DNA of 31,333 nucleotides from an uncultured Candidatus Saccharibacteria bacterium (GTDB lineage Bacteria > Patescibacteriota > Doudnabacteria > UBA920), in contig CAZJLL010000063.1 in NCBI GenBank assembly GCA_964547145.1, forward strand, positions 1 to 31,333. Direction: 5' to 3'. Shown one piece after another: positions 1-29,389 of the stretch (the first letter of the stretch is position 1; each line of letters starts with the position of its first letter). Position numbers and translations under genes: made by a program. The notes under the pieces were generated by a model. That model saw only the letters and a list, made by a program, of their open reading frames with translations, ran no database searches and had not been told where the DNA came from.

Positions 1-997
1 GTTCGGCCACGGTAACCAGCATAATATTGAGAATGCCAATGCCGCCGACGACCAAAGCAATTGCCGCCATCGCGGTTAGAAAGAGGCTCAGCGCATTGGT
101 AATGGTCGTCAGTACGGAAATGGCGTCGGCAATATTGCGCACGGTATAGTCCAGGTCAGAGTCGGTTTTAATATGATGCTGCTGGTTCAAAACCGCCGTG
201 ATATCGTCTATGGTCTGATTGACGTTTGAGGCCGCATCCACTTTTATGTTAATGGCCTGCAAATAGTGAATGCCCAACAACTGCTGCTGGCCAATAGTCA
301 ATGGCACAAACACCTGATCGTCCTGGTCCTGGAACAGGAAAGTGCCGCGGGCGGCAATGACGCCAATAACCCGCAGCGGCACGCCGCCGGACTGCGCCTG
401 GTCTTTCTGATAGGGATTGGCGCTGGCGGACTGCGATGAATTGCGCACTTTAATAATCTGGCCGACCGGATCAACGCCGGTGCCGCCGAATAATTCATCG
501 GCCACGGTAGAGCCCAAAACCACTACGTTGGCGCCGCCCTGATCTTCCTGCTGGTCAAAAAACTGCCCTTCCTTCATGGTAAAACTGACCACGTTCGGAT
601 AATCAGCATCAGTGCCGATAAAGTTGGTATCCACCGACTGGTTGCGCCAGGTAATGCCGGCCGTCCCGCGCACTACGGCGTTCACCGCCGTGGCATGGGG
701 CACGCGGCTCTTGTCCGCCAAGGCGTCGGCATCATCTTTAGTCAGGGTCGTAATGACTATACCGAACAGCTGCGCCGGCGGGCCTTTTTCGTTGCTCTTG
801 CCCGGCTGGACGGACAGCAAATTGCTGCCCAACTTTGTCACCTGGCCCAAAACCAAACTCTGGGCGCCGGCACCCAAGGCGATGATAATAATGACGCCGG
901 CGACGCCAATGACAATCCCTAAAATCGTCAAAAACGACCGGCCCTTGCGGGCCAGCAGTGTGCGCATAACCAGTCTAATCGTACCAAGAAAATTCAT
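1..997 (-). CDS. MacB/FtsX-family ABC transporter permease (3' end runs off the window)
   Basis: Not in the ORF track because it is truncated. Manual translation from ATG at 997: MNFLGTIRLVMRTLLARKGRSFLTILGIVIGVAGVIIIIALGAGAQ...VVVLGSTVADELFG...IAAIALVVGGIGILNIMLVTVAE-type C-terminal segment (AMAAIALVVGGIGILNIMLVTVAE), all MacB permease hallmarks. Confidence 0.95.
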   Translation of the reverse strand, partial: MNFLGTIRLVMRTLLARKGRSFLTILGIVIGVAGVIIIIALGAGAQSLVLGQVTKLGSNLLSVQPGKSNEKGPPAQLFGIVITTLTKDDADALADKSRVPHATAVNAVVRGTAGITWRNQSVDTNFIGTDADYPNVVSFTMKEGQFFDQQEDQGGANVVVLGSTVADELFGGTGVDPVGQIIKVRNSSQSASANPYQKDQAQSGGVPLRVIGVIAARGTFLFQDQDDQVFVPLTIGQQQLLGIHYLQAINIKVDAASNVNQTIDDITAVLNQQHHIKTDSDLDYTVRNIADAISVLTTITNALSLFLTAMAAIALVVGGIGILNIMLVTVAE

Positions 998-999
998 AC

Positions 1000-1389
1000 G
1001 CGTAGTAGCTGGAACATAGCAGCAAGGGAATAGGAATCCTAACTTAAAAAATTAAAAGATTTAATGATTGAAAGATAAGGAGATAGCATTAGAATTTCAA
1101 AATCCAAATTTCCAATTTCCAATCAATTTGTAGTGAGCAGTGAGGGAATAGATGACTTTAAAAGTTAAAGGTCAAAGGTTAAATGTCAAAAGTACCCTTA
1201 CATCCCGCCTCTTCGGCGGGCAGGCTTATATCCATATATCCTTACATACTTAAATTCCAGTAATTTTGTTCAATCTTGCCAATTACTAGCCTCTTGCCCC
1301 TAGTCTCTTGTTTTCTGCCCCCTCTGGGCACTCTACGCTCTACGCTGCACGCTAGTCCGCCTTGGGCGGGCTGTACGCTTGCCTTCTAT
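1000..1389. repeat. Non-coding spacer made of several degenerate 7-bp tandem-repeat tracts plus short GC palindromes
   Basis: 7-mer runs: ATTTCAA/AATCCAA/ATTTCCA/ATTTCCA (1094-1121); TAGTGAG/CAGTGAG (1131-1144); CTTTAAA/AGTTAAA/GGTCAAA/GGTTAAA/TGTCAAA (1156-1190); CTAGCCT/CTTGCCC/CTAGTCT/CTTGTTT (1286-1313); CTCTACG/CTCTACG/CTGCACG (1331-1351). Palindromes CCCGCC-tcttc-GGCGGG (1204-1220) and CCGCC-ttg-GGCGG (1357-1369). Confidence 0.85.
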
Positions 1390-2106
1390 TTATTTCACCA
1401 ATTCTGAATCGGGCTTGGCAATAGTCCGCTTTTCCACCCGTTCGTCGGCTATAATGTTGCCGTCCTTAATGCGCAAAATACGCTTGGCGTGATTGGCAGT
1501 ATCCATTTCGTGGGTTACCAAAATAATTGTCCGCCCCTGATTGTTCAGCGTCTGCAGGATGTACATGACGGTATTGCCGGATTTGGAATCCAGGTTGCCA
1601 GTCGGTTCGTCGGCGAAAATAACCGCCGGGTTGTTTACCAAAGCGCGGGCAATAGCCACGCGCTGCTTTTCCCCGCCGGAAATCTGGTTGGTAAAATAAT
1701 CCAGCCGGTGGGATAATCCGACCGACTCCAGGGCCTTTTTGGCCAGTTCATCCTGATTCTTCTTGCCGCTGTACATTAACGGCAGCTTAACGTTATCCAG
1801 CACCGTGGTCCGCGCCAGCAGGTTGAACGACTGAAAAACAAAGCCGATTTCCTCGTTACGCAAGCCGGCCAGATAATCATCGTCAAAATCTTTGGTGTCT
1901 TTGTCCTTGAATTCATATAAGCCGCCGGTCGGCCGGTCCAGGAAGCTCAAAATATGCATGAGCGTGGACTTGCCGCTGCCCGACGGACCCATAATGGCCA
2001 CAAATTCCCCCGGTTCAATGGCAAAATTCAGGCCGTGCAGCACCGGAGTCACGACGTCTTCATTGATATAATCTTTTTTGAGATTTTCAACCTTGATTAA
2101 AGCCAT
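1390..2106 (-). CDS. ABC transporter ATP-binding protein, MacB/LolD type
   Basis: Walker [10 protein letters not shown], signature [15 protein letters not shown], Walker [13 protein letters not shown]-loop VTHE. Confidence 0.97.
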
Positions 2107-2153
2107 AAGCCAAGCCGGACGGAATGGACAAAAACTCTCGCCCCGTCCGAAGT

Positions 2154-3713
2154 TTAATTAATATAAGTAACAACTTCGTCCCCCTCGCTTAAGCCAGAAG
2201 TTATTTCCGTCAGGCCGCCGTCCGCTTCCAGGCCCGTGGTGACCGGCACCTGCTCGTAGCTCTTTTTCTTGCTGTCGGTAATGCGCCGGACGAATTTGCC
2301 GTTATCCTGCTGAATCACCGCGCGCGAAGGCACGGCTAAGGCACCACCTTTCTGCGCCACTAAAATAATCATGTTGGCGGTCATGCCGGGTTTAATGTCC
2401 GGAACATTGTCCAGGCTGGCCTTAACTTTATAATCCACTACGCCGGAAACGACGGTAGCGCCGGGGTTAACCGTCTGCACCGTAGCATTGAAATGCCGAT
2501 CCGGCCCCAGGGCGTCAAAGGTGACATCCACGCTTTGGCCGGGCTGGATTGAGGCAATGTTGGCTTCGCTGACATCCGCTTCCACGTGCAGGCTGCTTAT
2601 GTCCTGCAACACAATGGCTTCCTGCATGGCCGTAGCCAATTCGCCGACTTTAATATCCACGGAAGTAATGGTGCCGTCGGCCGGCGCGCGGATGATGGTA
2701 TTTTCCAGTGCTGCCTGGGCGGTCAGCACCTGGCCCTGAGCCGAAACAATCGCCGCCTTGGCGGCATCAATGTCGGCCGGCCGGGCCTGGGCGGTCTTTA
2801 AGTCCAGCGCCGCCTGGGCCTGGGCCAGCGCCGCCTGGGCGCTGTCCACCTGGGCCTGGGCAGAGGCCAAAGCCGATTGCTGGGTCTGCAGCGCCGCCTG
2901 GTAAGCGTTATAATTAGCCACATAATTGGCCGCGGAAGTGTTTGGAATATTCACCGTCCAGGTGTCGCCGTTATACGGCAGGCTGTTGAACTGAACATAC
3001 AAACCGCGGCTGCCCATGGCCACCGGCGAAGCCTTCACCTGGCCGGTTACGGCTTCCAAGCCAGAAGTCTGAAAATATTGGCCACTGCCGGTGCTGTAAA
3101 TTTTTATAGTATAAACGCCCTGATCCGCACCGGTATAGGTGCCGCTGATGCCAACCACATTAGTGCCGCTTAAATTGGTGGCTGCCGGAATAGCGCTTAA
3201 AGTGGAATTGAGCAAGGCGGAATAAGCATTACTGACGGCTGTGGCTTGTTGCGCCTGCACGTTCTGCAGGTTGGTTTTGGCGGTATTCAAAGTCACCTGC
3301 GCCGAATCCACGGCGCTTTGGGAAACCGCCACATCCTGGCTGCTGGCGCCGCTTAAAACTTTTTGGTAATTGGCCTGGGCCTGGGCCAGCGCGCCCTGGG
3401 CGGTGGTCAGGCCGGCCTGGGCATCTTTTTGATCAAGGGTGGCCAAAATATCTCCCGCTTTAACCTTGTCCCCTTCCTGAACCCCGATTTTCTGGACAAA
3501 ACCGCTGACTTTAAAGCTCAAATCCAGATCGGTGCTGGAAACAACCTGGCCCGTGGCTAAAACGGTTGATTTTAAGTCCTGTTTTTTGACGACATCGGTT
3601 TGGATATTGGCGGCGCTATTGCGCCGTGCCGCAATCCGCCAGCCGATTAAGACGAGCAGTAATACGATAATTGCGGTCCAGATAATCTTTTTTTTGGTGA
3701 AAAATTTTCTCAT
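2154..3713 (-). CDS. MacA-like periplasmic adaptor (membrane fusion protein) with a long coiled coil and an inserted beta-rich domain
   Basis: N-terminal TM anchor; lipoyl-like motifs DLSFKVSGFVQKIGVQEGDKVKAGDILATLD and IRAPADGTITSVDIKVGE; beta-barrel VEADVSEANIASIQPGQSV; C-terminal TGLEADGGLTEITSGLSEGDEV. Confidence 0.93.
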   Translation of the reverse strand: MRKFFTKKKIIWTAIIVLLLVLIGWRIAARRNSAANIQTDVVKKQDLKSTVLATGQVVSSTDLDLSFKVSGFVQKIGVQEGDKVKAGDILATLDQKDAQAGLTTAQGALAQAQANYQKVLSGASSQDVAVSQSAVDSAQVTLNTAKTNLQNVQAQQATAVSNAYSALLNSTLSAIPAATNLSGTNVVGISGTYTGADQGVYTIKIYSTGSGQYFQTSGLEAVTGQVKASPVAMGSRGLYVQFNSLPYNGDTWTVNIPNTSAANYVANYNAYQAALQTQQSALASAQAQVDSAQAALAQAQAALDLKTAQARPADIDAAKAAIVSAQGQVLTAQAALENTIIRAPADGTITSVDIKVGELATAMQEAIVLQDISSLHVEADVSEANIASIQPGQSVDVTFDALGPDRHFNATVQTVNPGATVVSGVVDYKVKASLDNVPDIKPGMTANMIILVAQKGGALAVPSRAVIQQDNGKFVRRITDSKKKSYEQVPVTTGLEADGGLTEITSGLSEGDEVVTYIN

Positions 3714-3734
3714 AAACGGTTATTATTAAAAAAA

Positions 3735-4061
3735 TTAAGCCTTCGGTGCTGACTGCTTCAACCTGCTAAGCAGGCTGCTTTCCAGATATTTGCGAAAGTC
3801 TTTGGCGGCGCCGCTGCCGGCCAAGTGCTCCATAATCGCGTCTACCAGCTGGGACATGGCTTCGGCCTTAATCAGGCCGATGGCCCGGCCGAACTTGCCA
3901 ATTACCAGCAGCTGATCGCCCGGACTGATACCCAAATCCCGGCGGGCCGGAGCGGGAATAACCACCTGGCCGCGGGCGCCGACCGTGGTCGCGCCGTAGA
4001 ACTTGTCCTGCCGGGCCATTTTTTTATGAAACCCGGCTAAAGTTTTTGCTTTCTTTGCCAT
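3735..4061 (-). CDS. AbrB/MazE/SpoVT-family DNA-binding protein
   Basis: Swapped-hairpin motif TTVGARGQVVIPAPARRDLGISPGDQLLV; first gene of the ABC operon. Confidence 0.9.
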   Translation of the reverse strand: MAKKAKTLAGFHKKMARQDKFYGATTVGARGQVVIPAPARRDLGISPGDQLLVIGKFGRAIGLIKAEAMSQLVDAIMEHLAGSGAAKDFRKYLESSLLSRLKQSAPKA

Positions 4062-4064
4062 AGC

Positions 4065-4111
4065 GTATGATATATCATACTTATCATATCATATTTTCCC
4101 CTTTTCGTCAA
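4065..4111 (-). promoter_or_regulatory. Sigma70 promoter of the abrB-macAB operon with an adjacent palindromic operator
   Basis: Minus strand TTGACG (4106-4111), 17 bp, TATGAT (4083-4088). Perfect 16-bp palindrome GTATGATATATCATAC at 4065-4080, plus extra TATCAT copies at 4082-4087 and 4087-4092. Confidence 0.8.
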
Positions 4112-4115
4112 TTTT

Positions 4116-4293
4116 CTCTTCCTGGAAGAGGTGCCCCCTCTTCCAATTCAAATTTATGGTGTAATAAAGGTTCCCCCCGCAGCAAGCTGACGGGGTATCA
4201 TTGCAAGGAGCCGGCTTGCATTTCGCAACAGAGCTGCGAGGCATTAAACCTGCATTAGCTCCTTAGGCTCGCTTATCCTTGCAAGCAAGGATA
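4116..4293 (-). ncRNA. Putative structured RNA or palindromic element (family unknown)
   Basis: At least five hairpins in ~180 nt. Two have G(CUUG)C tetraloops when read on the minus strand. Strand and function are inferred. Confidence 0.35.
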
Positions 4294-4359
4294 GACTCGC
4301 CTGCGTCGCTAATAAAAACTGGCCGCCTGGCCGGCAGATCAAGCAGCCGGCTCTTCTGC

Positions 4360-5793
4360 TCAAGCAAAATTAAGGGAATCGACTTTTTTCCGCAGCCCGG
4401 CCCGCTCAAAAATATCCGCAGCGGTTACGGCCAAAAGTTCCGGCTGCCGCTCCTCCGCCGGAGTAATAACCCGGTATATCTCCGGCAATTGGCAATCAAT
4501 GCTGTCCTTTAAAGCCAGCTGTTTGGCCAGCTGCAGATAAGCGTGGTAAAAATCCTGTCCCGCCAAATACAGATCCAGGCCGGTAGCAAGGGAAAAATCC
4601 TGTCCCGCCAAGCCGGGGAAAAAACCGAGACTGCCTTCCAAAAAATTTTTTGTTTCAATCGGACCGATTGCCGCGGCGGCGTCCTTCAGGCCGGCTTTGG
4701 CAAATAGCCGTAAAAATTTCTGCTTGATATCGGTCAGCCAGTTAACCTGATTGAAGCCGCCGGCGCAGGTGACGCCGTAATAAAGCAAAATTAAAAAACA
4801 GACCAAAGTCGTGGGATAAAGCCTGCCTTGCCGCAGTGCCGCAGCCACTGCCCCCGGCTCCGCCTTAAGACTGAAACCGTCACCCTCCAGGCAGCCAGCA
4901 TTATGGCGCAAATGGATGCGCCGGCCTGTCGGTGCAAGCCCCCAAAACAAGAAACTGCCTTTATGGCCGCTGCTGAAAGCGCCGAGACTCCCGGCAAATG
5001 TTCCGCCAATCAGCCCCAGGCCGGCGGCCGAAAACAGCAGCGGATACAAAGGATGGCCGGGCTCGCCGGCGATATCCGCCGCCAGGCGGCCGATTAGCTG
5101 TTCCAGCGGCAGATACAAAACTTCCGGCGCGGTCGGAAAAAAATTTTTCCACAGCAGCCGTGAGGCGCGGGCCGACTGGCCAAGAAAGTCTGCCGCCGCG
5201 CCGACTTCCTTATCGCCGAAAACATCCGTGAGCAAAGTTAGCAGCCGCTCCTTTTGCGCCTGACTAAGCAGCCCTTCTTCCCGCAGGCGGCGGCGGAACT
5301 GGTCAAACTGCTCAAGCTTCAGCGGCGGCTGGGCCAGGACGGTCCCGGTCTTTTGGCGATCGCTGAAAAACGATAAGCGGCGGAGGCCGCCGCCGGGGCC
5401 GGTAAAAACCAGGGAGCCGGGCCAGGAAGAATTATTCAGCGAAACGCCGCCGGTGGCCAGACAAATCAAATACGGCTGATTCTGGCGCAAGCTGAAAATC
5501 AGGTTTGAATTTATAAAAAACGGATGGTTTAGCAAACCATGATGATCAACTGTAGAGACCAGCGGCGCGGCGGCGAACTGGCCGGCAGCGGCCGCGGCAA
5601 CCGCAGGCGGATAATAAGATTCAAGCGCTTCCCGGACATAAGCTAACACAGGCGAACTGGGCGGCAGCGGCACGGCCGCCGGCCAGGCATTGACATAATT
5701 AAACAAGCTTAAGCTGCCCTGGCCGTTATAGATTTCGGCCAATGTCTTTTGCTTATTTAATACGGCCAGTTTGAGCGCTTCCAGATTTGACAT
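4360..5793 (-). CDS. Hypothetical 477-aa cytoplasmic protein, possible HUP/Rossmann-fold (BshC-like) ligase
   Basis: Long ORF with the local high-GC codon style. Motif-like segments VSTVDHHGLLNHPFF, GGVSLNNSSWP, GRLYPTTL and TCAGGFNQVNWL. The fold call is an inference. Confidence 0.8.
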   Translation of the reverse strand: MSNLEALKLAVLNKQKTLAEIYNGQGSLSLFNYVNAWPAAVPLPPSSPVLAYVREALESYYPPAVAAAAAGQFAAAPLVSTVDHHGLLNHPFFINSNLIFSLRQNQPYLICLATGGVSLNNSSWPGSLVFTGPGGGLRRLSFFSDRQKTGTVLAQPPLKLEQFDQFRRRLREEGLLSQAQKERLLTLLTDVFGDKEVGAAADFLGQSARASRLLWKNFFPTAPEVLYLPLEQLIGRLAADIAGEPGHPLYPLLFSAAGLGLIGGTFAGSLGAFSSGHKGSFLFWGLAPTGRRIHLRHNAGCLEGDGFSLKAEPGAVAAALRQGRLYPTTLVCFLILLYYGVTCAGGFNQVNWLTDIKQKFLRLFAKAGLKDAAAAIGPIETKNFLEGSLGFFPGLAGQDFSLATGLDLYLAGQDFYHAYLQLAKQLALKDSIDCQLPEIYRVITPAEERQPELLAVTAADIFERAGLRKKVDSLNFA

Positions 5794-5829
5794 AAACTTC
5801 TACTATTATATACAAATTGACCAAGAAAA

Positions 5830-5853
5830 AACACCTACCCAAAGGGAGGTGTT
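5830..5853 (-). terminator. Intrinsic terminator after the pilin gene
   Basis: AACACCT-A-CCC-aaa-GGG-AGGTGTT hairpin followed by a T run on the minus strand. Confidence 0.7.
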
Positions 5854-5868
5854 CGGCAGATACCTAAC

Positions 5869-6372
5869 CTATTGCACGCCGGTCGGGGTAAGAATATGGA
5901 TGCCGGAAGAAAAATTGCCCGTCTGGTTGCCGAGACAAAAATAATAGGAATAAGACGGATAAACCAAGGTGCTGCCGTCCGGATTCAAGAAAGGCGTGCC
6001 GCTGGGATAATAATAATAGACGGAGCCGTTGGTCCCCGAGGGCACCGGCGACGGATAATTCATGGTTTCGCAGTTGCCGTCCGGCGGGGTCGGAGCAGCG
6101 GGCAGGGAGGAAGTAACCGACGGAACCAGCGGCGACGGAATGCCGGCCGGGCCGGAGGGATAGCCCTTATTCGTGGCAAAATACAGTTCCAGGGCGGTAT
6201 TCATCTGCACCATATCGGACAGGCGTTTGCTGTCGCGGCCCTTTTGCCTGGCGGACATTAGGGCAATGAGCGCAATGGAACTAAGCAGCGCGATAATCGC
6301 CACCACGACCAGAAGTTCAATCAAGGTAAAGCCGCCTTGGCCAAAAAAAACTTTTTGATTTTGATTTCTCAT
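5869..6372 (-). CDS. Type IV pilin / type II secretion pseudopilin-like protein
   Basis: Class III signal GG|[16 protein letters not shown] with Glu at +5; RDSKRLSDMVQMNTALELYF; two Cys. Start re-set to MRNQNQK at 6372, a more typical leader length than the ORF-track start at 6465. Confidence 0.92.
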   Translation of the reverse strand: MRNQNQKVFFGQGGFTLIELLVVVAIIALLSSIALIALMSARQKGRDSKRLSDMVQMNTALELYFATNKGYPSGPAGIPSPLVPSVTSSLPAAPTPPDGNCETMNYPSPVPSGTNGSVYYYYPSGTPFLNPDGSTLVYPSYSYYFCLGNQTGNFSSGIHILTPTGVQ

Positions 6373-6565
6373 TATATTTTCCTGATAGATTAATTTTATC
6401 ATTGTCTTGAATACCGGGCAAGTGTATAAGTCTTTTTGGCAGACGCGCTTGATTAAAATGGCCAAATAAGGTAAAATAACAAAGATTTTGGTTGCAAAAT
6501 CCGTCTGGCAGCAGCGATATGGCCTGCCCTACGAAGCTTTGGCGGTATGCCAAAGTGAAAAATAA

Positions 6566-6627
6566 GGGACGGTAGCTCAGTTGGTAGAGCAGCGGCCTTT
6601 TAAGCCGTTTGTCGTGGGTTCGATCCC
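6566..6627 (+). pseudogene. tRNA-Lys(UUU) 5' part lacking the 3' acceptor strand and CCA
   Basis: GGGACGG followed by 55 nt identical to the intact tRNA-Lys (6573-6627 = 6695-6749). It then diverges (ACACAAGG...) with no acceptor complement. Confidence 0.85.
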
Positions 6628-6687
6628 ACACAAGGATACAATGGTATAATTGGTAAATCGTTTACCTTTGAAAACTAAATACTTCGT

Positions 6688-6763
6688 GGGAACGTAGCTC
6701 AGTTGGTAGAGCAGCGGCCTTTTAAGCCGTTTGTCGTGGGTTCGATCCCCACCGTTCCCACCA
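6688..6763 (+). tRNA. tRNA-Lys(UUU), complete, CCA encoded
   Basis: Acceptor GGGAACG/CGTTCCC; D arm GCTC-AGTTGGTA-GAGC; anticodon arm GCGGC-CTTTTAA-GCCGT; T arm GTGGG-TTCGATC-CCCAC; ACCA end; 76 nt. Confidence 0.97.
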
Positions 6764-6765
6764 CG

Positions 6766-6796
6766 AAAAAGCATCGAATTATTTGGGTGCTTTTTT
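6766..6796 (+). terminator. Intrinsic terminator after tRNA-Lys
   Basis: AAAAAGCA...TGCTTTTT inverted repeat with a T run. Confidence 0.6.
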
Positions 6797-6832
6797 GTAA
6801 AAGTAATATAATTACCACACTTAATTTTTTAT

Positions 6833-7540
6833 ATGGAAATAGAAAATAAGAAAGTCGTTGAAGGCGACATTATAGTGACAACGTTACCAAAGGATAATAA
6901 ATTTTACCCTTACAAGGTTCTAAAAATTGAGTCTTGGCCGGACGAATCTATTACTTGGCACGTGCTTGGCTATGTTCCTTTAGATTACAATCCAACAGAA
7001 AAAGATATATCAAAATTATCAGTACGGGCTTGGCATATTCCTATAAGAAGTTTTGAAGACAAAATCCAAATAATAACTCACTCTACAGTAACCGAGAATG
7101 AGCTACAAGGATATTTTGAATATTTGAAGCTAACAGACTTTCCCCGCTATATTAAAGAGACAGGAAAAAATATAGATGAAGTAATTAAGAAAGCAAACGA
7201 GTATTATGCCAAGGGCAATGAATTATCTGATGCTAAGCAATATGATGAAGCCATAGAGGCATATACTTTAGCCGCAGAGGAGTTTCCGCTACTTTTTGAA
7301 GCAATAGACAACCGGGGATTTGCCAAAATGGATATGGGTAAATACCAAGAAGCCATTTCCGATTTCGAGGAATCATTACAAGTAAAACCTGATAACTTTA
7401 CAGCTCAATTTAGCTTAGCCGAGTGTTACTATCGTTTAAAAGAATATCAGAAAGCCCAAGAAGAAGCCGAAAGAGCAATTACATTAAAAGATGAACCGTT
7501 GGCAAGAGACTTATTGCAAAAAATTAAAGAAAATTTGTAA
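6833..7540 (+). CDS. TPR-repeat protein with an unknown N-terminal domain; AT-rich, likely acquired
   Basis: C-terminal TPR units (YYAKGNELSDAKQYDEAIEAYTLA; AIDNRGFAKMDMGKYQEAISDFEESLQVKP; AQFSLAECYYRLKEYQKAQEEAERA). Visibly lower GC than flanking genes. Confidence 0.88.
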   Translation: MEIENKKVVEGDIIVTTLPKDNKFYPYKVLKIESWPDESITWHVLGYVPLDYNPTEKDISKLSVRAWHIPIRSFEDKIQIITHSTVTENELQGYFEYLKLTDFPRYIKETGKNIDEVIKKANEYYAKGNELSDAKQYDEAIEAYTLAAEEFPLLFEAIDNRGFAKMDMGKYQEAISDFEESLQVKPDNFTAQFSLAECYYRLKEYQKAQEEAERAITLKDEPLARDLLQKIKENL

Positions 7541-7658
7541 AATCGTTTACCTTTCAAATAGAAAACTGATAAAGTTCTTTCAAAACTAGCCTCTTAAATA
7601 AGAGTAGTCGCAATATTTCACGCTCAATAATTGGTGGTTTAGCCAGATGGGCTGCGTG

Positions 7659-7679
7659 CGATCCCCTCCCGTCCCACCA
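7659..7679 (+). pseudogene. Displaced tRNA 3' end (partial T loop, T stem, acceptor strand, CCA)
   Basis: CGATC-CCCTC-CCGTCCC-ACCA. CCGTCCC is the exact complement of GGGACGG, which starts the truncated tRNA at 6566. Confidence 0.8.
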
Positions 7680-7716
7680 AATTAAAAATTCCCAATGTCT
7701 TGGGAATTTTTAATTT
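7679..7716 (+). terminator. 17-bp-stem hairpin (terminator of the ancestral tRNA gene)
   Basis: AAATTAAAAATTCCCAA-tgtc-TTGGGAATTTTTAATTT, a perfect inverted repeat. Confidence 0.75.
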
Positions 7717-7744
7717 GCCCGACGTAGCCTTGGCGAAGTCGGGC
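7717..7744. repeat. Short GC-rich palindromic element
   Basis: GCCCGAC-gtagccttggcgaa-GTCGGGC. Similar short GC hairpins occur at 1204-1220, 1357-1369 and about 29482-29507. Confidence 0.6.
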
Positions 7745-7773
7745 TGCTAGAATCAGCATACTTGATACTATCA

Positions 7774-7890
7774 CTCATTTTCTACGAAGCCTTCCCATCT
7801 AAAGCCTACACCTTAAGACGAGAAGCCTACTTTAAAACCACCGAGGACAAAGTTACTCTAAGACAAATAATAAAGGAATATTTAAAGTAA
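7774..7890 (+). pseudogene. C-terminal remnant of a small GIY-YIG nuclease family gene
   Basis: Frame reads LIFYEAFPSKAYTLRREAYFKTTEDKVTLRQIIKEYLK*. This matches the 'L.YYE.....A..RE..LK' tail of stand-alone GIY-YIG proteins. No start codon or GIY/YIG motifs upstream. Confidence 0.7.
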
Positions 7891-8022
7891 GCAGATAGCC
7901 GAGGTAAAATCTCCACCGGACCTACCATATGATAACTGTTACCTACGGTTACTTACCCGCTGGACAAAAAACCAAAACCGCGCAAAAATAAGGGCAAGAG
8001 GGCATTAACCTAAGTTTATCTT

Positions 8023-8400
8023 ATGAATTCGCGCACCAAGCAAATTCTGATCATTGCAGGGGTCATTATTGTCCTGCTGGTTGTTGGCTGGCTCTTAAAA
8101 GCCAGGCATTCGGCCAAAGAAGAAGCCGCACCGGCAGCGCCGCAAACCCAAAATGCGGACAACCAGGCCAGTGCCGCCGCACCGGCCGGCGAAGACCAGG
8201 CCAGCACCTGGACCGGCACGCTGAAAGCCTCCGCCAATCCGGCCAAAGGCAATTTGGTTTTAGTCACCAGCGACCAAACTATTTATATTAAAACCAGCCG
8301 CGATTTTGCCTCCCTGGTCGGCAAAACGGTAAAGGTAACTTACCAGGGCACGCCGCAAAATTTCGTCCTGGGCGATATCACCCTGGCGGAACAACAATAA
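8023..8400 (+). CDS. Membrane-anchored hypothetical protein (TM, Ala/Pro linker, small beta domain)
   Basis: Hydrophobic ILIIAGVIIVLLVVGWLL, low-complexity linker, beta-rich C-terminus; 3 bp before the next gene. Confidence 0.85.
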   Translation: MNSRTKQILIIAGVIIVLLVVGWLLKARHSAKEEAAPAAPQTQNADNQASAAAPAGEDQASTWTGTLKASANPAKGNLVLVTSDQTIYIKTSRDFASLVGKTVKVTYQGTPQNFVLGDITLAEQQ

Positions 8401-10462: not shown

Positions 10463-11614
10463 TTAGTTAAACGACTCTTTTATACTGTTCCACAAACCTT
10501 CATCCACTTCTACGGTTTCGCCGCGCTCGGCGGCCAGAGTTTTCAGCAGTTCCTTTTCCTTTTTTGTCAGCTTCTTGGGGACGACCACGCGCGCGGTCAA
10601 CAGCAAATCACCCCGGCTGTCCGGCTGGTTAATATGCGGCACGCCCTTATGCCGGATGCGGAACACGGTGTCCGGCTGCGTACCGGCCGGAATTTTCAGT
10701 TCAATCTCGCCGTCCAGGGTTTTGACAAAAATTTTCGCCCCCAGCGCGCTCTGGGTAAAGCTGACCGGCACGTCTTTAAGCAGGTTAAAGCCGTCGCGGC
10801 GGAACTCGCGGTCAGGCCGGACGGTTACCGCCAAATACAGATCGCCCGGCGCCGAACCCCGATAGCCGGCCTCGCCCTCGCCGGCTACCCGGATGCGCTG
10901 GCCATCCTCAATGCCGGCCGGAATTTTTACGGCAATCGTCTTTTCCTGGCGCCGGGCGCCGCTGCCGCCGCAGGCTTCGCAAGGCTGCTCCGGCACTTTG
11001 CCCTGGCCCTGGCAGCGGTCGCAGACGGCGGAAGAAGCAATGGTGCCGAAAATAGTCCGCCGCGTGGTCCGAATCTGGCCCTGGCCATGGCACTTGGGGC
11101 AAGCAACAACCTTGCTGCCGGGCTTGGCGCCGCTGCCGCCGCAAACAGAGCAGGCGTCCTGCTTGTCCAGCGTAATGTTTTTCTCCGCGCCAAAGACCGC
11201 TTCTTCAAAAGTTATGGTCAAGCCGATTTCTAAATCAATCCCGCGGTTGCGGCGGCTGGCACGCTCCTGGCGGCCGCCGAAAATGTCGCCGAAAATGTCG
11301 CCCAAATCGCTAAAGCCGCCAAAATCCGCGCCATTAAAATCCCAGCCCGCCGGCCCGCCGGCCCCGCCGCCAAACGGATTATAGCCCGCACCGGCCCCGC
11401 CACCGTCAAAAACCCGGCCGTACTGGTCGTATTGCTGGCGCTTCTGGGCGTCGGACAATACCTGATAGGCTTCGTTAACCTGCTTGAATTTTTCCGCATT
11501 GCCGCTGCCCTTGTCCGGATGGAATTCATGAGCCTTTTTGCGGAACGCCCTTTTTATTTCGTCGGCAGAGGCGCCTTTAGAAACGCCTAAAATATCATAG
11601 TAGTCGGTTGCCAT
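10463..11614 (-). CDS. dnaJ: Molecular chaperone DnaJ
   Basis: J domain with HPD, G/F-rich linker, four CxxCxGxG repeats, C-terminal substrate domain. Confidence 0.99.
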
Positions 11615-11626
11615 GTTGCGCGAAAG

Positions 11627-11920
11627 TTATTCAGTCTTAAAACCGATTTTCTTCTCCGGCAGCGCCGGGGCGCCGACAGCGCCGAATTCCGCCTCATAGC
11701 GCTGCAGATTATCCTGCATGGCCGCGACCATCCGCTTAAAATGCGCCGGCGACATAATTACCCGCGCACCGACAATGCCGTGCGGCGGCAGCACGTTCAT
11801 AAAGTCGATAAAAAACTCTTCCGGCGTATGGGCGACCTGGGCGAGATTGGCATAAACTCCCTGCAGCACCTCGTCCGCAATTTTTACCTGCAGCTGCTGA
11901 TCCGAAGAAGATTTTTCCAT
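11627..11920 (-). CDS. DUF3467-family protein
   Basis: GVYANLAQVAHTPEEFFIDF...ARVIMSPAHFKRMVAAMQDNL matches the family pattern as I recall it. Confidence 0.8.
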   Translation of the reverse strand: MEKSSSDQQLQVKIADEVLQGVYANLAQVAHTPEEFFIDFMNVLPPHGIVGARVIMSPAHFKRMVAAMQDNLQRYEAEFGAVGAPALPEKKIGFKTE

Positions 11921-11934
11921 AAGTGAAATGTCAA

Positions 11935-12678
11935 TTAATTAAATTGGGTTTTTAATTGCTGCAGGGCTGCCTTTTCCGCGGCGCAAAAATCGGCAGGCGA
12001 GGTCTGGCTGTAGAGTTCATACGGCCGGCCGCCAATACCCGGAGGCGTTTTCATAACGCAGCCGTCATCGCTGCCGGCGGGCAGGCCCAGCTGGCCGCCG
12101 AAAGCGCGCAGCAAGCTGGTCAGCAGATACTCGTTCTGGTGCTGGCCCAAAGCCCCCAAAAAACTCCGATGGGCGGACAGCGATACGACCAGGCCGAATT
12201 CCTGATATGGCGCCGCCAGTTCTTCCGCGCTGCGCGGGCTGTAATCCTGGGTGAAAAAGACCAGCAAATTGCTGCCGCCGGGCGGGGTTTGGATGGCGGC
12301 CTTAAAACGGAACGTATCCAGGTTGGCCAGCGGCACCGTGCCGTCGCTGACCGCGCCGCCATAAACCAGCTCGGTCCGCCGGCCGGTGGCAGCTGCCACC
12401 CGGTCTGCGAATTCCTGCAGCAGATTCTGGTCCACGTCTTCCGCCTGCGGCTTGAACCATTCAATCATAACCGGCCCCTGGCCGCTCAGATATTCGCCGC
12501 GGGCATCGCCGGGCCGGTGCAATCCGAAAGCGGTGCGCAGCCAGGAATACTCGCCTAAGCGAAAACGGATGGTCTGGTTAAAATGGCTGGCTGGATTGCC
12601 CAGCACCATAATTTTCACCGCGCCAAAGGCGGCCAGCAGCAGAATCAGAATGGTGAAAAAAATGGCTTTGAAGGACAT
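11935..12678 (-). CDS. Membrane-anchored protein resembling a catalytically dead metzincin-type protease
   Basis: N-terminal TM; C-terminal LLRAFGGQLGLPAGSDDGCVM sits where HExxHxxGxxH plus the Met-turn would be; terminal FCAAE. Confidence 0.75.
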   Translation of the reverse strand: MSFKAIFFTILILLLAAFGAVKIMVLGNPASHFNQTIRFRLGEYSWLRTAFGLHRPGDARGEYLSGQGPVMIEWFKPQAEDVDQNLLQEFADRVAAATGRRTELVYGGAVSDGTVPLANLDTFRFKAAIQTPPGGSNLLVFFTQDYSPRSAEELAAPYQEFGLVVSLSAHRSFLGALGQHQNEYLLTSLLRAFGGQLGLPAGSDDGCVMKTPPGIGGRPYELYSQTSPADFCAAEKAALQQLKTQFN

Positions 12679-12682
12679 GGCG

Positions 12683-14545
12683 CTATTTTACTTCCTTATA
12701 TTCGGCGTCCACCGGCCCCTGCTCCTGCGGCGGCTTTTGTTCGCCGCCCGGCTGGGCGGCTCCCGCCGCCGCATCCGGCCCCTGCTGATACATAGCCGCG
12801 CCGACTTTCTGCACGGCTTCGCTCAATTCATCCAGCGCTTTCTTAATAGCTTCCGCGTCGTCCTTGTCTCTTACTTCTTTCAACGCCTTAATTTTCTCTT
12901 CCACCACGCTCTTGTCTTCCGCTTTAACCTTGTCGCCGCCGTCTTTTAAGGTCTTTTCGCTGACGCTGATTAAAGTGTCGGCCTGATTGCGCAAATCCAC
13001 CGTCTCCTTGCGCTTGCGGTCCTCAGCGGCGTGCGCTTCCGCTTCCTTTTTCATGCGTTCAATTTCGTCCTTGCTCAAATTGGAAGAACCCTGGATGGTA
13101 ATATGCTGCTCTTTGTTCGTGGCTTTGTCCTTGGCTTTGACCGAGAGGATGCCGTTAGCGTCAATGTCAAAAGTCACTTCTACCTGCGGCACGCCGCGCG
13201 GGGACGGCGGAATGCCGTCCAAAATAAACCGGCCGAGCGATTTGTTGTCCGCGGCAAAATCCCGCTCGCCCTGCAGCACGTGGACTTCCACGCTGGTCTG
13301 GTTGTCGGCAAAAGTGCTGAAAGTCTGGCTCTTGGACGTCGGGATGGTGGTATTGCGCTCAATCATCGGCGTGCGCACGCCGCCGGCCGTTTCAATGCCC
13401 AAAGTCAGCGGGGTTACGTCCAGCAGCAGGATTTCCTTGCCCTGCACGTCGCCGCCCAAAATGCCGGCCTGGATGGCCGCGCCCTTGGCCACGGCCTCCA
13501 TCGGGTCAATGCCGCCTTCCACCGCCTTGCCGATAAACTCCTCCACAAATTTCTTGACGGCGGGCATGCGGGTCGGGCCGCCGATTAAGATAATTTTATC
13601 AATCTGGGCGGGCGTCAGCTTGGCGTCGGCAATAGCCTGCTGCACCGGCTGGCGCATGCGTTCCACAATCGGCTTAATCAATTCTTCCAGCTTGGCCCTG
13701 GTAATCTTCATCTGCAAATGCTTGGGCCCGCCGGCATCCGCGGTAATGAACGGCAGGTTTAAATCGGTTTCCAGAGTGGTGGACAACTCAATTTTTGCCT
13801 TTTCCGCAGCTTCGCGCACGCGGTTCATGGCCATCTTGTCGCCGGTAATATCCACGCCGCTGCTCTGTTTAAAATCGCCGGCAATATAATCAATCAGGGC
13901 CTTGTCCATATCCTTGCCGCCCAGCTGGGTGTCGCCGGAGGTAGATAGCACTTCAAAAGTCGCCTGGCCGTCCACTTCGGAAAAGTCCATAATGGTCACG
14001 TCCAGGGTGCCGCCGCCCAGGTCAAACACTAAAATCTTCTGATCCTTGGACGAACTCTTGTCCAGGCCGTAAGCAAAAGCGGCTGCCGTCGGTTCATTAA
14101 TCACGCGCACCACTTCCAGGCCGGCAATCTCGCCGGCATTCTTAGTCGCCTGCCGCTGGGAGTCGTCAAAATAAGCCGGCACGGTTACCACAGCCTTGGT
14201 TACCGGTTCGCCCAAAAAGGTTTCCGCGTCTTTCTTGATCTTTTGCAGAATGAATGCCGAAATCTGTTCCGGGCTGTAGTCCTTGCCACTGACTGTATAG
14301 CGGAAATTTGTGCCCATTTTCCGCTTAGCTTCAAAAATCGTGCCATCCGGATTGGTTACCGCCTGGCGGCGGGCCGGCTCGCCCACCAACAGCTGGCCTT
14401 CCTTGGTAAAAGCTACATAGGACGGAAAAGCCTTGCCGCCTAAGGAGGCGCCTTCCGCCGCCGGAATAATGACCGGCTTGCCGGCCTCCATCACCGAGGC
14501 CGCGCTGTTGGAAGTACCCAAGTCAATACCGATAATTTTAGACAT
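12683..14545 (-). CDS. dnaK: Molecular chaperone DnaK (Hsp70)
   Basis: [38 protein letters not shown]. Lacks the subdomain IB insert typical of diderm proteobacterial DnaK. Confidence 0.99.
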
Positions 14546-14586
14546 AGAGTTTCTTGAATAACTTATTAATGAAAAACTAAACCGAT

Positions 14587-14934
14587 TTAAAACTTTTCCC
14601 GGGACATCTGCGTCCGGCCCGGCTCGGCCAGGTCGCCAAGCAAAATTTCAAACGCCTGCCGGTATTGGCCGTCCGGATCAACCATGAACGGCCAGGGCTG
14701 GTCGGTTCGGATAATCTTCCGTTTGGCGCCGCTGCCACTAAGCTCCAGCGTATAATGCCCGCCCGAATACTCGTTAAACTTTGTCACCGCATAGCCGCCG
14801 CCAAGAAAAGAGATAATGTCGGCCACCAGTTTTTTATCAAACCGTTCGGCCAGCGGGCGCAATTCCCGCTGCTGATCCGGCTGCCGGATATTCTGTTCCG
14901 GATTTATTTCATGCCCGCCTGATGTTTCGTTCAT
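14587..14934 (-). CDS. Hypothetical protein between grpE and dnaK
   Basis: 115-aa co-oriented ORF filling the grpE-dnaK gap; no recognised motif. Confidence 0.65.
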
Positions 14935-14977
14935 ATAGTGATAATCTTTACTAATAGATTCAAGCTCAGGGTCGTAT

Positions 14978-15490
14978 CTATAATTTACGCTTACTGATTA
15001 CTACCTGGCTGGGGCGGATGACCTTGCCGTTCAATTCAAAGCCGGTCTGCAATTCCTCCACCACCATCTGGTCCTGCTCGCCTTCCACCTCGCGCACCGC
15101 TTCGTGGAAATTCGGGTCGAATTTTTTGCCTACCGCTTCAATTTTCCGCACGCCCAGCTCGGCCAAGGTTTTATCCAGCTGGCCGACAATGCCGGTTACG
15201 CCCGCCTGCCAGTTCCGGTATTTACCGGCAAACTCCGGGTCATCCGCCGCCGGCAAGTGCCGCAATGCCTGCTCCAGGCTGTCCAGCGTAGGCAACAGCT
15301 TGGCCACCGTAACTTCCCGGGCGAATTCCACCAGTTCCCGGTTTTCTGTCTCCTTGCGGCGCTTGTAATTTTCAAAGTCCGCCGCCGTCCGCTTCCAGCC
15401 GTTCATGGCGGAATCAAGATCGGATTGCAGCTTATCCAAAGTTATTTCGCTGCTCTGGCCCGGCACCTGGCTGTTCTGTTCGTCAGACAT
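14978..15490 (-). CDS. grpE: Nucleotide exchange factor GrpE
   Basis: RTAADFENYKRR, GKKFDPNFHEAV, GFELNGKVIRPSQVVI. Confidence 0.98.
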   Translation of the reverse strand: MSDEQNSQVPGQSSEITLDKLQSDLDSAMNGWKRTAADFENYKRRKETENRELVEFAREVTVAKLLPTLDSLEQALRHLPAADDPEFAGKYRNWQAGVTGIVGQLDKTLAELGVRKIEAVGKKFDPNFHEAVREVEGEQDQMVVEELQTGFELNGKVIRPSQVVISKRKL

Positions 15491-15511
15491 AGTAATTTAT
15501 CTAATCAAAAA

Positions 15512-16306
15512 TCATTTAATCATAAAAACCAGCGCCACGCCTACGCCGCCGCCCAGCAGCTTGGCGATATATTCCATCAGGGACAGATTTTTTTCATATT
15601 TCATGCTCTTGGGGCCGACCAGGCCAATGACGCCTTTCTTGCCCGATGGCAGCTGCAGCCCGGAAACAATCATGGAATAATCCGCCTCGGCCCGGTCGGC
15701 GTGGCGGGACGGGTCGCTGTTTTTGGCCAAGCTGATCTCCCGGCCGATTTTTGCCTCGGGTCCGCGGCCGGCGTATTCGCTAATCAGCCGCTCGGCATGC
15801 GCGTCAATGTCGTCAAAAAACCGGGCAATTTCTTTAGCATCTTCCGCCGGCAGCGCCGGGTTGTCCAAAATATTGGCCAGGCCGGTGGTGGACACCTCTT
15901 CGGGAAAAACTGCGAACGATGCCTGGTTGGAATGCTCAGACAGCATTTTGGCCAGCCGGCGCCCGATTTCCGCATGTACCGCCTGGAGTTTCAACATTTC
16001 CCGCCGCAATTCTTCCTGTTCTTTCAGCGTCAGCTTTACCTTGTCCATCAGCTGGTTGACAAAGTAGCGGAAACCCTTGTCCGTCGGCACGCGGCCGGAC
16101 GAAGTATGGGGCTGGGCAATATAGCCCATTTTTTCCAGCACCTGCATCTCGTTGCGGATGGTGGGGCTGCTGACGCCGAACTGATATTTTTCGGTAATAT
16201 CGGCGCTGGCCACCGGCTGGGCGCTGTCGCAATGCTCTTTGACAATGGCCGCCAAAATCTTAGCTTGGCGCAGGGTTAATTCGGGGCTGGCGGTTTTTTG
16301 GTTCAT
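15512..16306 (-). CDS. hrcA: Heat-inducible transcription repressor HrcA (short form)
   Basis: LTLRQAKILAAIVKEH, VSSPTIRNEMQVLEKMGYIAQPHTSSGRVPTDKGFRYFV, GVIGLVGPKSMKY; position upstream of grpE. Confidence 0.95.
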   Translation of the reverse strand: MNQKTASPELTLRQAKILAAIVKEHCDSAQPVASADITEKYQFGVSSPTIRNEMQVLEKMGYIAQPHTSSGRVPTDKGFRYFVNQLMDKVKLTLKEQEELRREMLKLQAVHAEIGRRLAKMLSEHSNQASFAVFPEEVSTTGLANILDNPALPAEDAKEIARFFDDIDAHAERLISEYAGRGPEAKIGREISLAKNSDPSRHADRAEADYSMIVSGLQLPSGKKGVIGLVGPKSMKYEKNLSLMEYIAKLLGGGVGVALVFMIK

Positions 16307-25437: not shown

Positions 25438-26262
25438 CTACAGTTTAACGGATACTTGCTTAGTTGTTAATAGTCGCCGCTCGGCATAAACCGCTGGCGG
25501 CATTTTTAATTTAGTGTGAATTCTTTTGTGGTTGTAGTAATAGAGTTGAAGGTAGATGGCCACGGCCAACTCGGCCAGTTTCTTGTAGCGGTTGGGGTCA
25601 CCTAGGTCAATTTTGAACTGAGAGTAGAAGGACTCCTGAAAGCCGTTCTCCCAAGGGCTGCCCTTGTGGCTCATGGAGGGCTTAAATCCCAAACTGATGG
25701 CAAAACTCATGTAAAGCTTACTTTTGTATTCACTGCCCTGGTCGGAGTGCAAAATATCTGCCCGGCCATGTTTTTCCACTGCATCCATCAGCGCCAGCAG
25801 GGGTAATTGCACCGTGTGGTTGGTCAGGATGCTCCAGCCGACAACCCTCCGGCCAAACACGTCCATAATGGTTGCCAGGTAAACGGTTTTGCCATGAAAT
25901 GGAATGTAGGTGAAATCCGAAACCCAAGCAACATTGGCCTTAGTCGGAAACGGCATCTCTTGCAGCAGATTCGGGAATACTGTGCCCAAATCCTTGATTT
26001 TCTTGAACTTTTTGCCTCTCCTGCGGTAGGGCTTAATGCCGAACAGCTTCATAACACGCCTGGCCTTTTTCTTGTTAACGCGCAGCTCTAACGCAACCCT
26101 GCGGTAGCCATAGGACGGATGTTCATGGAGCACTTGTTCAATCCGGTTTTTAAAGGACCAATCTTGATCTGGTTTCTTGGGCTTGTAGTAAAGGCTGGAG
26201 ATGGAAACGCCTAAGCGTTTGGCCAGTTCCTTTTTTGACAGGCCCAAGGTCTCAGCGGCCAT
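25438..26262 (-). CDS. IS3 transposase OrfB (DDE integrase core)
   Basis: HPSYGYRRV, WVSDFTYI, HSDQGSEY, ENGFQESFY, YYNHKRIHTKL. Confidence 0.95.
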   Translation of the reverse strand: MAAETLGLSKKELAKRLGVSISSLYYKPKKPDQDWSFKNRIEQVLHEHPSYGYRRVALELRVNKKKARRVMKLFGIKPYRRRGKKFKKIKDLGTVFPNLLQEMPFPTKANVAWVSDFTYIPFHGKTVYLATIMDVFGRRVVGWSILTNHTVQLPLLALMDAVEKHGRADILHSDQGSEYKSKLYMSFAISLGFKPSMSHKGSPWENGFQESFYSQFKIDLGDPNRYKKLAELAVAIYLQLYYYNHKRIHTKLKMPPAVYAERRLLTTKQVSVKL

Positions 26263-26530
26263 TACGATCGTCCGTCTTTTTTTTCTCCAGTTCCAGGTCG
26301 AGCATGATCTGGCCGATGAGCTGCTTTAGGGCCTGGTTCTCTCTTTTGAGCTTGGCCACCTCCAGAATGGACGGCTGGCCGGTAATTTGCTTGTTGAGCC
26401 AACTGTATATGGTTTTGACGTGCAGGCCGTGTTCGGCGGCCACTTGGGCTACCGGCTGGCCTTCATCCCGAATCCGTTTTAAGACTTGTTCTTTAACTTC
26501 TTTGCTGACTAACGCTTTGCCTTTGGGCAT
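26252..26530 (-). CDS. IS3 transposase OrfA (HTH)
   Basis: VAQVAAEHGLHVKTIYSW HTH and zipper EVAKLKRENQALKQL; SD AGAAAGGA. Confidence 0.93.
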   Translation of the reverse strand: MPKGKALVSKEVKEQVLKRIRDEGQPVAQVAAEHGLHVKTIYSWLNKQITGQPSILEVAKLKRENQALKQLIGQIMLDLELEKKKTDDRNGR

Positions 26531-26641
26531 AGGATACGATCCTTTCTGTATCCATTATACCGTAAAGAATCAAGTTACAAATTTTGGGGGGCCGACCAAT
26601 TAAAGATGTGGTACCAGTCCATGTCATAAGATAATTCAGCT

Positions 26642-27196: not shown

Positions 27197-27213
27197 ATAA
27201 TTGGTTTCTTAAC

Positions 27214-27921: not shown

Positions 27922-29389
<1,468 letters not shown>

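Follow-up and report, generated by a model that had tools for sequence, protein, structure and literature searches.

tRNA-dependent lysogeny is a mode of integration described for the actinobacteriophages Fionnbharth (K4), Cluster L, Cain (K6), Gaia (X) and Gordonia CQ2/DL (Guerrero-Bustamante and Hatfull, mBio 2024, PMC10865867). These phages, which use tyrosine integrases, enter a host tRNA gene, mostly that for tRNA-Lys-TTT, through a core of 8-17 bp without rebuilding it; they carry a cognate tRNA, and integration is lethal without it. The authors predicted that the strategy occurs beyond the phages they had tested (PMC10865867). Additional cases have been cited from outside the Actinobacteria, namely Lj965, a prophage in Lactobacillus johnsonii (cited in PMC10865867), and the Lo5R7ANS-like prophages in Sinorhizobium meliloti (PMC12429752, PMC11476347); a full-text literature search returned no mention of tRNA-dependent lysogeny for Patescibacteria. 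Here we describe a locus at positions 6566-7717 of a 31,333-nt stretch of DNA from an uncultured Candidatus Saccharibacteria bacterium (placed by GTDB in the Doudnabacteria of the Patescibacteriota; assembly GCA_964547145.1, contig CAZJLL010000063.1), referred to below as the window, in which a tRNA-Lys(UUU) gene is split by an islet that brings a complete tRNA-Lys(UUU) gene of its own. We consider it probable that this locus is the scar of a temperate phage that integrated by tRNA-dependent lysogeny and has since decayed; what the original prediction, made from the letters of this DNA alone, had termed addiction by replacement is the mechanism already described under that name (PMC10865867).

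The original prediction held that the host gene is split at its T loop by a small islet, and all of the elements that it listed, including TGGTATAAT, which it read as an extended -10 promoter, the terminator and the TPR gene, are in place (Table 1). The host 5′ piece comprises the acceptor strand GGGACGG, the D arm, the anticodon arm, the 5′ strand of the T stem and the T loop, whereas the 3′ piece consists, in this order, of the core CGATCCC, the 3′ strand of the T stem, the acceptor strand CCGTCCC and ACCA. CGATCCC (7 bp) is the sole block common to the left and right junctions (attL and attR), and merging the two pieces there gives, as had been claimed, a tRNA of 76 nt with one mismatch in the T stem (T:T), which ARAGORN calls as tRNA-Lys(ttt) and whose acceptor stem pairs at 7/7 positions. 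Nor has the target been restored, in agreement with the same prediction: both ARAGORN and Rfam see a truncated gene, the 5′ piece covering model positions 8-63 only of the Rfam tRNA model (47.8 bits) and not being called as a tRNA by ARAGORN, which finds one tRNA-Lys in the 31 kb window. Compared with the complete tRNA-Lys of the islet, the 5′ piece is 97% identical over 62 nt, including an exact 55-nt repeat, the two copies lying 122 bp apart. Approximately 1.03 kb lie between the two cores, with no phage protein gene kept, and the GC content is 0.38 over 6500-8000, against 0.50-0.60 elsewhere in the window (about 0.55 around the insert). From these parts follow signatures for the merged gene at the RNA level (GGGACGG...CCGTCCCACCA), for the empty site in DNA (GGGTTCGATCCCCTCCCGTCCC) and for the circle junction of the islet (...GCGTGCGATCCCACACAAGG...).

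How faithfully does the assembly render this arrangement? The NCBI contig DASZSQ010000123.1, from a metagenome-assembled genome (MAG), equals window positions 1-7722 with three single-nucleotide polymorphisms (SNPs), all outside the region, and has the same split arrangement; the window as such differs from contigs of MAG GCA_035548575.1 by no more than a few SNPs. A Logan contig (SRR12170511) corresponds to 6720-7720 and breaks exactly where the 55-nt tRNA repeat ends, as expected at k=31. The split arrangement is independently reproduced, and an assembly artefact is excluded. Both other assemblies stop at ~7720 and restart at ~8222, so that the link from the 3′ piece to the DNA downstream rests on the window assembly and on synteny in relatives. 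The ~500 bp in question (7720-8222) consist of AT-rich non-coding DNA and the low-complexity N-terminus of an open reading frame (ORF) at 8023-8400; this segment is a branch or bubble in the assembly graph, so that there is probably an alternative allele, and exact look-ups of the pilin and p125 proteins of the window returned no such allele.

The same junction recurs in other genomes. The exact 56-nt tRNA body common to both window copies was searched for in GTDB genomes, each species being represented by one, and matched 14 loci of different species, all of them in MAGs labelled Doudnabacteria, Patescibacteria group or similarly. Ten of the 14 hold an intact 76-nt gene; the remaining four (L011, JAJZRC010000006.1, 32.9 kb; L015; L016, JBBREH010000017.1, 28.4 kb; and L023) are cut at the same base, continue with a spacer of 42-62 nt and then with a complete second tRNA-Lys. 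Later additions were L028 and the degenerate L026 from metagenomes, L069 from IMG/VR, and L100 (ERZ25039512 contig_17402, 949 kb), the closest relative found, with a pilin 70% identical to that of the window. This brings the other occupied loci to eight, each with a cognate tRNA (8/8), and with the window included all attL junctions (9/9) end at GGGTTCGATCCC, precisely the T-loop split that had been predicted. Aligned beyond this point, intact genes read CACC plus the acceptor strand, whereas attL junctions read TAC(A/T/C)C... and the window ACAC; in full, the window sequence after the core is ACACAAGG (TACAC or TACTC in relatives). The junctions do not have the make-up of a canonical, tRNA-restoring element, attL being devoid of an intact gene and the arm of the phage attachment site (attP) devoid of the tRNA 3′ part; L011 and L100 likewise have no functional tRNA rebuilt. 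Six acceptor strands occur among the host 5′ pieces (GGGTTCG, GGGTCTG, GGGTCGG, GGGATCG-type variants such as GGGATGG, GGGTCGA and GGGACGG), whereas within each family the left ends of the inserts hardly differ, a combination that speaks for a mobile element and not for vertical inheritance. On sequence comparison, the split junction is not a product of chance, since it recurs in unrelated contigs. For the 5′ pieces in L015, L016 and L023, ARAGORN does make calls of 71-72 nt, which we took as permissive and not as genes; the sole call checked by hand, that in L016, depends on shifting the acceptor stem and on accepting one G-A mismatch and one G-T pair.

The occupied loci fall into two families. 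In the first (L011, L015, L023, L028 and L100), members are 80-86% identical over kilobases; in the second, L016 and L069 are 82% identical to each other. The window groups with the latter pair, its positions 6566-6763 matching L016 at 84% over 202 nt, and its complete tRNA is identical at 76/76 positions to the tRNA that lies just inside attL in the IMG/VR prophage L069. The left arm and the complete tRNA of the window are thus of phage origin, which bears out the claim that the cargo supplies a whole tRNA-Lys(UUU). The arm of the L011 type is homologous to that of the window as well, with a gap of 21 nt. In searches by pattern, the L011-type junction pattern returned five loci, of which L028 is real, L026 degenerate and three are chance matches, the junction and leader patterns gave 0 matches in IMG/VR, and the window/L016 leader pattern gave 0 matches in JGI metagenomes.

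Empty sites provide the counterpart. According to tblastn searches with the neighbours of the window, the order at the locus is p477, pilin, tRNA-Lys, p125, methyltransferase, response regulator, p187 and DnaJ. Between the pilin/p477 and the p125/methyltransferase genes sits an intact 76-nt gene in five relatives, namely in the same orientation in L012 and L024 and with the pilin-tRNA block inverted in L014, L018 and L019. L012 and L024 thereby furnish the uninterrupted allele that the original prediction had proposed to look for, with the same pilin and methyltransferase neighbours, in other species (55-70% protein identity). At occupied sites, the pilin side is seen in L015, L023 and L100 and the methyltransferase side in L011, L016 and L028. 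The order from the 3′ piece through p125 to the methyltransferase in the window agrees with the synteny of relatives, and a TGTAAAATATCA box is kept upstream of the intact tRNA-Lys gene in relatives. Furthermore, L019 has a displaced 3′ piece and terminator to which the window 3′ piece, terminator and subsequent hairpin are homologous; for the 3′ piece with its terminator, homology exists also to tRNA ends in L013 and L017. The three parts can therefore be taken as ancestral host DNA. A query of GTDB genomes with the methyltransferase found no relatives, and the contigs of L011 and L016 are not among the entries of the pilin homologue list.

Some of these sites show older traces. In L018 (~2430-2870) and L019 (~5190-5520), an intact tRNA-Lys gene with its terminator is followed by 190-330 nt of junk, which includes inverted T-loop scraps, beyond which come a displaced 3′ piece and a terminator of the host type; such remnants were left by canonical integrations that hit the same T loop and restored the tRNA. 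In L100 (9330-9720, minus strand), an older broken 5′ fragment of tRNA-Lys (GGGTCTGTAGCTCAGTTGG..GCAGCGGCCTTTTAAG..) lies upstream of the 5′ piece proper, broken up by small hairpin inserts and followed by an ORF for a GIY-YIG nuclease. The stacked remnants of L100 suggest that the tRNA-Lys gene was hit repeatedly.

What kind of element occupies the full-length sites? L028 extends for at least 13.7 kb from attL with every gene in the orientation of the tRNA, among them genes for a Sak4-like ATPase, HU, a ParB-fused N6 methylase, TerS and TerL (phrog_675, 1.5e-95). L069 encodes a Sak4-like protein, a methylase, TerL, portal, protease, major head protein, adaptor and neck, and L089, which is 82% identical to L069 in DNA, continues with the tail tube, tape-measure-sized genes, a LamG fibre, an amidase and a holin, to ~22 kb. 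Colinearity links L016 with L069, and likewise L100, L028 and L011 with one another. By their gene content, the inserts in L028, L069 and L089 are recognizable as tailed prophages. The terminases of the two families are unrelated (phrog_675 vs phrog_2), whereas the left arms of attP are homologous in both (TAC.C...ACAT...CCTTAAA.AAA); an attP arm and tRNA design held in common despite unrelated packaging and head modules suggests a portable integration-plus-tRNA module. No close relatives were found among GenBank phages, whose matches are only ~25% identical, and the Sak4-like protein had no match in IMG/VR. A peculiar variant occurs in L100, where positions 212-3954 belong to an element of the L011/L028 type that has no structural genes within the 9 kb seen and carries a diversity-generating retroelement (reverse transcriptase and bAvd) together with a short tyrosine recombinase.

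Table 1. Features of the split tRNA-Lys locus in the window and in the DNA on either side of it
Feature	Position	Strand	Remarks
Candidate host promoter TTGATT-17-TAAAAT	6449..6477	+	Consensus scan only, weak; upstream of the split tRNA gene
Host tRNA-Lys(UUU) 5′ piece, 62 nt	6566..6627	+	GGGACGG...GGGTTCGATCCC; host side of attL
Common core CGATCCC at attL	6621..6627	+	T-loop positions 56-60 and first two T-stem bases
Phage-type left arm (pre-tRNA leader), 60 nt of non-tRNA sequence	6628..6687	+	Homologous to the left arms of L069 and L016
TGGTATAAT	6642-6650	+	Inside the left arm
15-mer CGTTTACCTTTGAAA, first copy	6659-6673	+	Inside the left arm
Complete phage-derived tRNA-Lys(UUU)	6688..6763	+	Acceptor GGGAACG/CGTTCCC; CCA encoded; ARAGORN (ttt); Rfam 76.5 bits
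Hairpin and T run after the phage tRNA (terminator)	6763..6798	+	Inverted repeat; resembles the hairpin after the L069 tRNA
TPR gene, 235 aa	6833..7540	+	Pfam TPR_1/2/8
Right arm of the insert, 118 nt	7541..7658	+	Holds the second 15-mer copy (7544-7558)
Host tRNA-Lys 3′ piece, 21 nt	7659..7679	+	CGATCCCCTCCCGTCCCACCA; host side of attR
Original host terminator hairpin, perfect 18-nt arms	7678..7717	+	Inverted-repeat search; homologous to AAATTAAAATTCCACAGTTTGGGATATTAATTTTG in L019
GC-rich hairpin GCCCGAC...GTCGGGC	7717..7747	+	Host DNA after the terminator; similar sequence after the L019 terminator

How might the locus have arisen? In the reading that we prefer, the first step would have been a recombination between the attP of a tailed phage of the L069/L016 family and the T loop in the tRNA-Lys(UUU) gene of the host, with the 7-bp CGATCCC as the core. 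Because attP lacks a copy of the tRNA 3′ end, the host gene would have been split and not rebuilt, its 5′ piece ending up at attL and its 3′ piece, together with the original terminator, at attR. The phage tRNA-Lys(UUU), placed 60 nt inside attL and in the orientation of the host gene, comes to lie behind the host promoter, in the position formerly taken by the 3′ half of that gene; it would then supply the missing tRNA, presumably transcribed both by read-through from the host tRNA promoter and from TGGTATAAT and subsequently released by RNase P; unlike the window leader with its TGGTATAAT, the arm of the L011 type has no obvious promoter. Eventually nearly the whole prophage would have been deleted, so that of the insert only the two arms, the TPR gene and the phage tRNA, followed by its terminator, are left, and an internal deletion that spared the ends and the tRNA is the simplest reading of this outcome. 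The phage tRNA would by now be the resident gene at the locus, probably kept by selection, and we infer that it is essential. As to the status of the islet, for which the original prediction had allowed either mobilization in trans or a relic, it is the relic option that stood: the islet is the decayed remainder of a prophage of at least 22 kb, which is the mobile unit, and not a mobile unit of 1 kb itself.

The TPR gene (GC ~0.37) encodes a protein with three TPR repeats behind an uncharacterised N-terminal domain; its homologues, 40-56% identical, are scattered in many bacteria. This gene and the right arm, the final ~30 nt of which are weakly tRNA-like, may derive from the same phage as the tRNA. 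A TPR homologue also occurs at the start of contig L003 (1-120), where P0003 (53% identity) begins 55 nt after the 3′ end of another tRNA, one with the anticodon loop CTTATAA, as a second case of this TPR family directly downstream of a tRNA. The islet arms hold one copy each, in the same orientation, of a 15-mer (CGTTTACCTTT(G/C)AAA) that occurs exactly twice in the 31 kb; it is kept in the leaders of L016 and L069 and resembles the tRNA anticodon-arm sequence TTAAGCCGTTTGTC. The idea that the 15-mers are arm-type integrase sites was set aside, since the 15-mer is absent from the homologous L011-type arm.

Which recombinase would have served the window phage? A tyrosine integrase is plausible and the more likely class. 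L100 is the only element of this kind with a recombinase seen inside, a 239-aa tyrosine recombinase (PF00589) encoded at 212-931, ~8.5 kb from attL; relatives of this integrase in IMG/VR (44-52% identity) have no tRNA or T-loop site nearby. A different arrangement was encountered at the left ends of L035, L037-L040 and L042, where the 3′ end of a gene for a large serine recombinase of 535 aa overlaps tRNA-Gly. A large serine recombinase would explain why the target was not restored; as a candidate integrase it was set aside, having been seen only in TerL relatives at tRNA-Gly.

Several observations nevertheless weigh against a single decayed prophage. The islet contains neither an integrase, as the original prediction had already remarked, nor a phage structural gene, and tblastn of the window found no integrase remnant. 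The full-length relatives yielded no attR and no right end, so that a single phage is only the putative source of both islet ends; the rightward walk from L069 to L089, as well as the amidase homologues L094, L095, L096, L098 and L090, all end or diverge before an attR or an integrase is reached. The segment 6800-7658, i.e. the TPR gene and the right arm, matches none of the fetched phage loci, and the 15-mer repeat at 6659 and 7544 has no explanation. IMG/VR phages with a TerL 65-68% identical to that of L028 sit at tRNA-Gly and use a large serine recombinase, which makes a serine enzyme a possibility for the window phage, too. Finally, the T-stem strand of the 3′ piece, CCCTC, fails to pair with GTGGG of the 5′ piece; this T:T mismatch may have arisen as the dead fragment decayed, or the 5′ piece may have been converted by the copy beside it with its 55 identical nucleotides.

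Could these irregularities betray a composite scar? In that case an older, TPR-carrying element at the T loop would have displaced the 3′ piece, possibly in a canonical tRNA-restoring integration, an L069-type phage would later have entered the resident tRNA, and a deletion would have joined its left end to what remained of the older element. We regard this as unlikely, even though the repeated hits on the T loop in L018, L019 and L100 make a composite origin the more possible: relics of canonical integrations at the same gene are at hand in the first two, and L100 holds a second, older 5′ fragment. The T:T mismatch between the two window pieces would fit such a history as well, and so would the lack, in the fetched phage DNA, of anything related to the TPR gene or the right arm, and the L003 homologue lying, too, just downstream of a tRNA. 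It does, however, need more steps; the 15-mer common to both arms suggests that the ends belong together, and there is no second 3′ piece or second core within 6566-8022. Those same arms, with the intact 7-bp core at both junctions and the conserved 15-mer near each end, are what one would expect of a still-mobile satellite that retains the essential tRNA, has no integrase and is excised and re-integrated by that of an incoming L069-type phage, and the two other assemblies that branch beside the islet would agree with such movement. Yet the islet was not found a second time, not even as a near-copy, the exact TPR protein sequence occurs in this population only, the leader pattern is unmatched in the viral and metagenome collections, and every other occupied site holds a phage-sized insert; we therefore find a satellite hard to defend.

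Explanations that dispense with a mobile element fare worse still. The exact 55-nt repeat, its copies 122 bp apart, might be thought to show that the host tRNA-Lys gene was duplicated locally in tandem and subsequently decayed, were it not that hosts whose tRNA alleles differ, and viral contigs as well, share this breakpoint and have homologous left arms, that the GC content of the insert is 0.38 vs 0.55 around it, and that the acceptor stems differ by compensatory changes, as befits two distinct functional alleles; a duplication is most improbable. Just as little credence can be given to a chimeric or collapsed assembly across the tRNA repeat, which is longer than common k-mer sizes and near which other assemblies break: an identical arrangement is present in the NCBI MAG contig, which runs across 1-7722, and the same architecture is found in eight other contigs from different projects. 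That the merged pieces form a near-perfect tRNA could also bring to mind a functional split tRNA joined at the RNA level, or a tRNA gene with a 1-kb intron. This is extremely improbable, given that no Rfam intron family matches even at E<=1, that the longest complementary run between the flanks (after the 5′ piece and before the 3′ piece) is 5 nt, with a duplex energy no better than that of shuffles, and that the complete replacement gene makes a joining of the halves unnecessary. A decayed prophage that had entered by tRNA-dependent lysogeny thus stays our preferred account.

Other parts of the window offer a few observations of their own. A 16S rRNA gene (27924-29389, minus strand) has no 23S gene after it; the region downstream of it (25438-27525) is an AT-rich stretch (GC 0.36-0.39) with a DUF7674 ORF (26642-27196), a small ORF and an IS3-family transposase (25438-26262). 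A lone MazE-like antitoxin ORF (3735-4061, minus strand), between an HlyD-like gene and p477, and, downstream of the locus, the conserved heat-shock cluster hrcA-grpE-dnaK-DUF3467-dnaJ (10463-16306, minus strand) form an ordinary context.

If a decayed prophage is the right account, tRNA-dependent lysogeny, shown by experiment so far only in actinobacteriophages, would extend to phages of uncultured, genome-reduced Patescibacteria, in which loss of one tRNA gene should be lethal because of their minimal tRNA sets. It would also show an end point that lies beyond the experimental work: after decay of the prophage, the phage tRNA would stay behind as a chromosomal gene, which would mean that a phage can permanently overwrite a core translation gene. 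In practical terms, a truncated tRNA-Lys match with a full copy behind it would be a usable marker of prophage borders in genomes of the candidate phyla radiation. It is perhaps conceivable, though we raise it tentatively and think it rather doubtful, that such replacement proceeds as a serial turnover, in which each integration kills the resident tRNA-Lys(UUU) gene, decay fixes the phage copy, and this copy becomes the next target. If so, the 'host' alleles and the diversity of their acceptor stems would be largely of phage origin. Hints in this direction are that the acceptor of the dead host allele in the window (GGGACGG/CCGTCCC) is that of the L011-type phage tRNA, that the T-stem strand of the window 3′ piece is that of the L016 phage tRNA, that the host and phage alleles of L028 both read GGGATGG, and that two 5′ fragments are stacked in L100. 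In addition, with both att arms retained, the islet might still be open to excision by the integrase of an incoming phage.

How, then, does this locus compare with what is known? With tRNA-dependent lysogeny it has in common an attachment site in a tRNA gene, a short core, the absence of rebuilding and a cognate tRNA; the temperate phage is represented by the full-length relatives L028, L069 and L089, the window itself keeping none of the phage protein genes. Like the actinobacteriophage system, it has its host attachment site (attB) in a tRNA gene, there most often tRNA-Lys-TTT, and both attL and attR are devoid of a functional tRNA; unlike that system, it involves a patescibacterial host, a core in the T loop, and a decayed end state in place of an active prophage. 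The place of the phage tRNA differs as well: here it lies 42-62 nt from the crossover and is co-oriented with the host 5′ piece, whereas the Fionnbharth tRNA is encoded at another place in the genome, on the opposite strand and in overlap with gene 37. Prophage Lj965 and the Lo5R7ANS-like prophages reportedly also leave the target tRNA gene without rebuilding and encode a cognate tRNA, in other hosts and phage lineages. Integrative elements that target tRNA genes were reportedly sorted into sublocation classes by Williams (NAR 2002). With canonical T-loop elements the present locus shares a crossover in a 7-bp T-loop stretch flanked by the symmetric T stem; in those elements, however, attP carries the tRNA 3′ end and the gene is restored, which the attP left arm found here (TAC/ACAC...) does not allow. 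In the split tRNA genes of Nanoarchaeum equitans, halves with complementary leaders are joined by the archaeal splicing endonuclease; there, too, 5′ and 3′ pieces lie apart, whereas those of the window have no such complementarity and are accompanied by a complete replacement gene. What is new here, in comparison with all of these, is the host phylum, the core in the T loop, the position of the tRNA directly inside attL, and a decay after which the resident gene is the phage tRNA.

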